From: Escherichia phage ECO95 1-6-1
Direction: 5' to 3' (one strand)
Sequence record: OR845378.1
Length of the DNA: 2,876 nt
Part shown: piece after piece, positions 3 through 194 of the stretch
How positions within the stretch are numbered: position 1 is the first letter of the stretch
Layout: the number at the start of each line of letters is the position of its first letter
Notes under the pieces: generated by a model
Told to the model about the DNA's origin: nothing
Databases searched by the model: none
The model's input: the letters and a program-made list of their open reading frames with translations, nothing else
Made by a program: the position numbers and the translations under genes

Positions 3-194
3 TGTGGGGGCAAGCGGGGTGGTTTTTATATCCATGATTCCACCAAAGGTTACAGTCATGGTTGTATTGAAGTGGAACCGGTGTTTTTCCGTATTCTGAA
101 ACAGGAGACGGAAAAAGAAAATGGTGAAAAGACATTTACGGTTAATGTTAAGTATGTTTCTGGTCAGCAAACGAATGGTGGAACAAAACAATAA
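3..194 (+). CDS. 3-prime end (63 codons plus stop) of a gene truncated by the window edge; C-terminus of an L,D-transpeptidase-fold (YkuD-like) protein, possibly a Tlde1/DUF2778-type T6SS peptidoglycan-targeting toxin
   Basis: Frame 3 is open from the window edge to TAA at 192-194 and reads CGGKRGGFYIHDSTKGYSHGCIEVEPVFFRILKQETEKENGEKTFTVNVKYVSGQQTNGGTKQ*. The S-H-G-C motif (nt 54-65), preceded by an IHD/G-rich stretch, matches the catalytic Cys/His signature of the YkuD L,D-transpeptidase fold. The other two forward frames hit stops within about 100 nt. Absent from the ORF track only because no start codon lies inside the window. Confidence 0.5.
   Translation, partial: CGGKRGGFYIHDSTKGYSHGCIEVEPVFFRILKQETEKENGEKTFTVNVKYVSGQQTNGGTKQ

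Follow-up and report, generated by a model that had tools for sequence, protein, structure and literature searches.

The window, which is the whole stretch of 2,876 nt analysed here, carries on its plus strand the 3' end of an L,D-transpeptidase-type gene, an AT-rich spacer, a complete vgrG gene and the first codons of sciW (Table 1). The upstream gene, which is almost certainly tlde1a, a cargo effector gene of the Salmonella enterica SPI-6 T6SS, is read in frame 3 from base 3. Its translation is CGGKRGGFYIHDSTKGYSHGCIEVEPVFFRILKQETEKENGEKTFTVNVKYVSGQQTNGGTKQ, that is, CGGKRGGFYIHDSTKGYSHGCIEVEP...NGGTKQ followed by the stop codon, and none of the 63 codons is interrupted by a stop or a frameshift. 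The SHGC signature (bases 54-65, within S-H-G-C-I at 54-68) is followed by only 42 further residues after the cysteine, in good agreement with the distance of about 40 residues that an earlier note on this DNA had given. The base composition changes sharply along the window, with a GC content of 40.1% in the tlde1a fragment and 33.8% in the spacer (with a trough of 23-26% at positions 301-525) versus 56.9% in vgrG, and the description of the segment as AT-richer than vgrG thus holds.

Table 1. Features of the window and, in the last three lines, DUF2195 homologues at related loci.
Feature	Sequence	Position	Strand	Details and basis
tlde1a, 3' end	window	1..194	+	bases 1-2, final two bases of codon Ala110; 3-191, Cys111-Gln173; TAA stop, 192-194; translation, identity to PDB 7uma_A, allele match to L012
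Tract site AAGC-GGGGTGG-TTTTT	window	12..27	+	codons K114-R115-G116-G117-F118; alignment, regex comparison of alleles, frame analysis
Codons R115 and Y119	window	15-17 and 27-29	+	just 5' of the catalytic motif
Catalytic L,D-transpeptidase motif of tlde1a	window	33..65	+	H121, 33-35; S128, 54-56; H129, 57-59; G130, 60-62; nucleophile C131, 63-65; computed codon positions, roles from PMC9638812
AT-rich non-coding spacer between tlde1a and vgrG, 396 nt	window	195..590	.	composition, six-frame stops, tblastn, Rfam
Shine-Dalgarno motif AAGGAG	window	577..582	+	8 nt before the vgrG ATG; direct sequence reading
vgrG (VgrS/TssI), 729 aa, T6SS spike protein	window	591..2780	+	ORF list, Pfam, TIGR03361, PDB 9mlp
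sciW, first 24 codons (DcrB-family Eag chaperone for PAAR-Rhs effector)	window	2804..2876	+	identity to L001; runs off the window
DUF2195 homologue	L005	6455-6871		
DUF2195 homologue	L006	6470-6871		
DUF2195 homologue	L007	5942-6343		

Five related Salmonella loci (L001-L004 and L012) were aligned with the window at 97-98% nucleotide identity. L001-L004 encode a product of 70 aa that is identical to the fragment, and L012, which is from serovar Chichester, encodes an intact protein of 173 aa. The 24 visible codons of sciW, which begins 23 nt past the vgrG stop, are identical to the start of the DcrB-family gene in L001; SciW has been named an Eag chaperone (bioRxiv 10.1101/2024.12.20.629533).

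The product of the central gene was assigned by Pfam matches to Phage_GPD (E = 2e-100), Phage_base_V and Gp5_trimer_C, by a TIGR03361 score of 552.6 bits, and by an alignment with VgrS (PDB 9mlp) of 1499 bits over residues 80-729. VgrS of S. Typhimurium also has a length of 729 aa (bioRxiv 10.1101/2024.12.20.629533). An exact look-up of the VgrG sequence of the window in the assembly index returned no match. The region from 591 to about 920, with a GC content of up to 69%, encodes an N-terminal extension that is rich in Ala and Gly, is about 110 residues long and precedes the gp27-like domain. Matches to Pfam and TIGRFAM begin only at residues 107-121, 9mlp covers only residues 80-729, and in a truncated VgrS construct the first 81 residues were removed (bioRxiv 10.1101/2024.12.20.629533). 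It should also be noted that the window and L012 are similar in nucleotide sequence only up to window position 2309 (window 2310-2780 versus L012 from 6638 onward). The C-terminal part of VgrG differs between the two, with total lengths of 729 aa in the window and 744 aa in L012, and a different Rhs cargo follows in L012. This divergence fits a recombination at the 3' end of vgrG that swaps effector-loading modules.

The identification of the upstream gene rests on a comparison with proteins of known structure. All 63 residues of the fragment are identical to residues 111-173 of Tlde1a (PDB 7UMA, 7UO3 and 7UO8; E = 5e-39), a protein whose structure and characterization have been reported by Lorente Cobo et al. 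2022 (PMC9638812). In Tlde1a numbering, the fragment holds R115, Y119, H121, S128, H129, G130 and C131, which together form the LD-TPase motif and the pocket for the substrate and D-amino acids and which have been tested by mutagenesis (PMC9638812). The part of the gene that precedes the window can be supplied from relatives. Joining the upstream DNA of any of the Salmonella relatives to the window yields a continuous ORF of 173 aa, and when L001 9691-10018 is joined to window 1-191, the product matches 7uma_A without a single difference from residue 1 to 173 (E = 6e-123). This reconstructed protein is on record as Q93IR4_SALTY and as 'MULTISPECIES DUF2778 domain-containing protein [Salmonella]', and it occurs on at least 1000 contigs.

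A four-residue signature could also arise by coincidence, in non-coding DNA or in an unrelated reading frame, and the Pfam results for the 63-aa fragment alone would be in line with this, as the C-terminal ends of both Tlde1_dom and YkuD are matched only below threshold (17.7 and 16.8 bits; E = 0.005 and 0.011). However, the identity of 63/63 residues to a crystallised protein means that the SHGC match is not coincidental. In addition, a search at E <= 1e-5 yielded more than 200 homologues, and PF10908 is annotated on most of those listed. A chance match can therefore be dismissed entirely.

The profile scores themselves deserve attention, because full-length Tlde1a, the prototype of the family, also stays below the Pfam gathering thresholds, with 24.0 versus 30.1 bits for Tlde1_dom (PF10908, formerly DUF2778) and 23.0 versus 23.4 bits for YkuD (PF03734). 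The shortfall is thus a fault of the profiles that does not speak against membership, and it reflects the under-representation of subfamily a in the Tlde1_dom profile. NCBIfam contains no model for Tlde1a or for Tldi1a. Relatives of Tlde1a at 50-58% identity carry precomputed PF10908 annotations, and NCBI names the cluster DUF2778. In the profile check that the earlier note had proposed, the full-length sequence obtained from relatives matched both DUF2778 and YkuD, with both scores below threshold. Nevertheless, the proposal of a Tlde1-like peptidoglycan toxin with an L,D-transpeptidase SHGC signature was not only right but understated, since the fragment does not differ from the founding Tlde1a. 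The feature is already known: the protein with which the Tlde1 family was founded, and which has been crystallised, is encoded here in its canonical position, and no new biology is needed. The founding paper on Tlde1a is reportedly that of Sibinelli-Sousa et al. 2020 in Cell Reports (31:107813).

The gene order at the related loci leads to the same assignment. It runs tssM, tagF, sometimes tge2/tgi2, tldi1a (DUF2195), tlde1a, spacer, vgrG/vgrS, sciW and PAAR-rhs with its immunity gene, which is the canonical variable region 2 (VR2) of SPI-6 and places the gene within a T6SS cluster. The Tlde1/Tldi1 pair has been placed in SPI-6 VR2, 3' of tssM and 5' of tssI (PMC10469887), and Tlde1 has been found in 150-240 serotypes (PMC10469887; PMC12288458). 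In every related Salmonella locus, tlde1a lies directly 5' of vgrG. A position upstream of vgrG, which had appeared unusual in the earlier note, is thus the normal position of the prototype (PMC10469887).

Tldi1 has been characterised as an immunity protein of the DUF2195 family (PMC13478106), and all five of the related Salmonella loci have a DUF2195 gene (E = 7e-43) whose end lies about 25 nt 5' of tlde1a. A search for an immunity gene further upstream, which had been suggested earlier, was thus successful in each of these loci. For the genome from which the window derives, synteny predicts that tldi1a would be found directly upstream of tlde1a, outside the window. The location of the immunity gene upstream of the effector gene also explains why nothing immunity-like follows tlde1a. 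Among the alternatives that had been considered, the assignment to a neighbouring effector-immunity module was the right one, and the idea of an orphan effector has to be given up in view of the tldi1a (DUF2195) gene that directly precedes tlde1a in the relatives, outside the window (PMC13478106).

A side observation concerns the region further upstream. In L004 (1-5764) and L012 (1-3321) a second module, which consists of a DcrB gene, a PAAR-Rhs gene (Tox-HNH-EHHH) and an Imm50 gene, lies in place of tagF before the tldi1a-tlde1a pair. The content of variable region 2 that lies 5' of the pair is thus itself variable among the relatives.

The position within the SPI-6 cluster also bears on the possibility that the gene encodes a housekeeping periplasmic L,D-transpeptidase of the YkuD type, a paralogue of the kind of LdtA-E or YcbB that came to lie beside vgrG by chance. 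The SHGC motif and the weak YkuD match of both the fragment and the full-length protein are compatible with such an enzyme, and 'murein L,D-transpeptidase' is among the names given to the cluster in databases. However, the YkuD score does not reach the gathering threshold, the sequence is identical to that of a protein with a demonstrated role as a T6SS antibacterial effector, and the gene is located inside the SPI-6 T6SS cluster beside its cognate immunity gene. Furthermore, the full-length sequence has no signal-peptide-like N-terminus: in the Tlde1a proteins of the relatives, no hydrophobic h-region is present within the first 40 aa, and the maximal Kyte-Doolittle value over 10 aa is 1.13, by what is a crude test. 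In published toxicity assays with Tlde1a, a pelB signal had to be added (PMC9638812). The housekeeping paralogue, which had been one of the options of the earlier note, can thus be given next to no probability, and the T6SS effector Tlde1a is retained.

The first 110 codons of this tlde1a copy lie outside the window, and the fragment could also be the tail of a pseudogene, that is, of a gene that was disrupted upstream of the window and survives only as an inactive remnant, with the immunity gene next to it kept. Disrupted forms do exist. In L001 (10030-10046), L002 (7098-7114) and L004 (6783-6799) an uninterrupted G9 run (G9T4) covers the codons for R115-G116-G117, and in L003 (843-859) the tract reads G8T5; each of these tracts is one base longer than that of the window. 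The resulting +1 frameshift, which falls exactly at window 12-27, splits tlde1a into ORFs of 120 aa and 70 aa and leaves the upstream tldi1a intact. Other truncated or frameshifted products are also present in the databases (P0004, P0015, P0020 and P0021). However, the window carries the in-frame allele, GGGGTGG-T5, with an interrupted G run, and from position 3 to 194 it does not differ at a single nucleotide from the intact 173-aa tlde1a of L012, the tract allele included. The open reading frame is undisturbed throughout its visible part, and the intact protein is far commoner than the frameshifted form, which is rare (a cluster of 7 members on about 35 contigs, versus an intact cluster of 916 members, the main sequence of which is found on at least 1000 contigs). 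A pseudogene is unlikely on these grounds, and this copy of tlde1a is very probably intact; judged from sequence, the genome would encode a full-length and functional Tlde1a.

A protein search with the fragment as a query had yielded only products of 46-108 aa, and the feature was regarded for a time as a gene remnant. The short products are explained by the split ORFs of the frameshifted lineage. The idea was dropped after a search with the full-length query found the 916-member cluster of intact proteins, and L012 also speaks against it, as it shows that the allele of the window is the intact one.

The frameshifted lineage additionally has a linked synonymous SNP at codon 113 (GGT versus GGC), which is found together with the G9 and the G8T5 tracts. 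The existence of two tract alleles and of a linked SNP suggests a real lineage rather than a sequencing error. It is conceivable, but very unlikely, that slipped-strand mispairing at the G8-G9 homopolymer makes Tlde1a phase-variable in the L001-L004 lineage, with tldi1a kept intact, and that the frameshift is not simple decay. The GGGGTGG allele of the window is interrupted and slippage-resistant.

The spacer between tlde1a and vgrG has stop codons in all six frames, and its longest ORF (336-545, 69 aa) is AT-rich, of low complexity and without support as a gene. In distant relatives the immunity gene is kept downstream of the effector gene, and the possibility that the spacer holds a second, decayed immunity gene was therefore considered; it was rejected, because a tblastn comparison of the spacer with five DUF2195 proteins gave no match up to E = 50, and because of the stops in six frames. 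The statement that no immunity-sized gene is present in the gap is thus confirmed, with an exact length of the gap of 396 nt. Rfam produced only sub-threshold matches in bases 1-800, to SpR10 (20 bits versus a gathering threshold of 50) and to DicF (17 versus 48). A scan of bases 1-700 with promoter consensus sequences revealed one promoter-like site versus 2.4 expected from shuffled sequences, and in the same region two terminator-like sites were found versus 0.7 expected, which was judged no better than the shuffles; one of the two is located inside the tlde1a coding sequence. Compared with L012, the spacer differs at 9 of 396 positions. Presumably, it carries regulatory or promoter DNA for vgrG. 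SPI-6 is silenced by H-NS, and several regions within the island are bound by H-NS (reviewed in PMC12288458); judging from its composition, the tract of 23-26% GC located 5' of vgrG could plausibly be a target of H-NS.

At the border of the spacer, another reading frame (190-285, plus strand, frame 1) overlaps and passes the tlde1a stop and reads IIPLKPAEIIVSGRAVVDNHYNGGQISNEHQ before it reaches its own stop. In P0020, a Salmonella product of 67 aa, the frameshifted C-terminus of Tlde1a runs straight into this peptide. Since members of the Tlde1 family end at NGGTK, the frame-1 peptide is not an ancestral C-terminal extension.

The enzymology of Tlde1a, its toxicity, its T6SS dependence and its neutralisation by Tldi1 have been published for the identical protein (PMC9638812; PMC10469887; PMC12288458). 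If the copy studied here acts likewise, it would be a single-domain enzyme of 173 aa without a signal peptide and with a modified YkuD-type L,D-transpeptidase fold, which the T6SS would deliver to the periplasm of Gram-negative competitors. At this site, the thiolate of Cys131, helped by His121, Ser128 and His129, would attack the mDAP3-D-Ala4 bond of the peptidoglycan tetrapeptide stems. Two reactions could follow: either the stem would be trimmed to a tripeptide (L,D-carboxypeptidase activity), or a free non-canonical D-amino acid would take the place of D-Ala4 (L,D-transpeptidase exchange). Either reaction would use up the substrate for cross-linking, so that the target cell would swell, stop dividing and lyse. 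The producer would be shielded by Tldi1a, the periplasmic DUF2195 protein encoded directly upstream of tlde1a.

The main value of the fragment lies in its correct annotation, and several points are of wider relevance. Annotation that is based on profiles alone under-calls Tlde1a, since the Pfam models Tlde1_dom and YkuD as well as NCBIfam all miss the prototype at curated thresholds. The immunity gene lies 5' of the effector gene in Salmonella, and scans that look for immunity genes only downstream would wrongly classify tlde1a as an orphan. Lastly, in a minority lineage the effector has been lost through a G-tract frameshift and the immunity gene has been kept, which is relevant for surveys of effector repertoires.

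The closest known system is Tlde1a of S. enterica serovar Typhimurium. The visible 63 residues, the C-terminus and the stop are all the same as in the window, the gene has the same position in SPI-6 VR2 directly 5' of vgrS, it is followed by the same AT-rich spacer, and tldi1a is located upstream in the relatives. The surrounding DNA differs from that of the retrievable Salmonella relatives at about 2-3% of the positions. In view of this divergence and of a VgrG allele that is not on record, the window probably derives from a different serovar or strain. An origin in E. coli was rejected, as a megablast of bases 1-600 against complete E. coli genomes gave no match.

Housekeeping L,D-transpeptidases such as LdtD/YcbB of E. 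coli, LdtMt2 of M. tuberculosis and Csd6 of H. pylori have the common core fold and the (S/T)HGC motif with its Cys-His pair in common with Tlde1a. The similarity extends to the idea of a capping subdomain in the case of YcbB and to the D-amino-acid pocket in the case of Csd6 (PMC9638812). In contrast to these enzymes, Tlde1a has neither a signal peptide nor accessory peptidoglycan-binding domains, its capping subdomain is small and distinct, and its YkuD Pfam score remains under the threshold. It is a toxin that is delivered by the T6SS and has a dedicated immunity protein.

Further members of the Tlde1 family are found in Cupriavidus (C. campinensis), Caballeronia, Bordetella (B. petrii), Teredinibacter and Vibrio and in many metagenomes. 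An exact 49-mer of the window had 0 hits in the GTDB representative genomes, a collection in which masked stretches are present, and a protein-guided scan of these genomes revealed only distant relatives with 37-58% identity and no Salmonella locus. The relatives in Beta- and Gammaproteobacteria are single-domain proteins of 172-174 aa that are 48-58% identical to Tlde1a; they have the core FY(I/L)HDSTKGYSHGCIE, an NGGT C-terminus and a DUF2195 partner. In three betaproteobacterial loci with 50-58% identity (L005-L007), the DUF2195 gene is located directly downstream of the effector gene and no vgrG is present within 6 kb, whereas the order in Salmonella is immunity gene, effector gene, vgrG. 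Thus, the pairing of effector and immunity protein is conserved between these groups, in contrast to the gene order and the linkage to vgrG.
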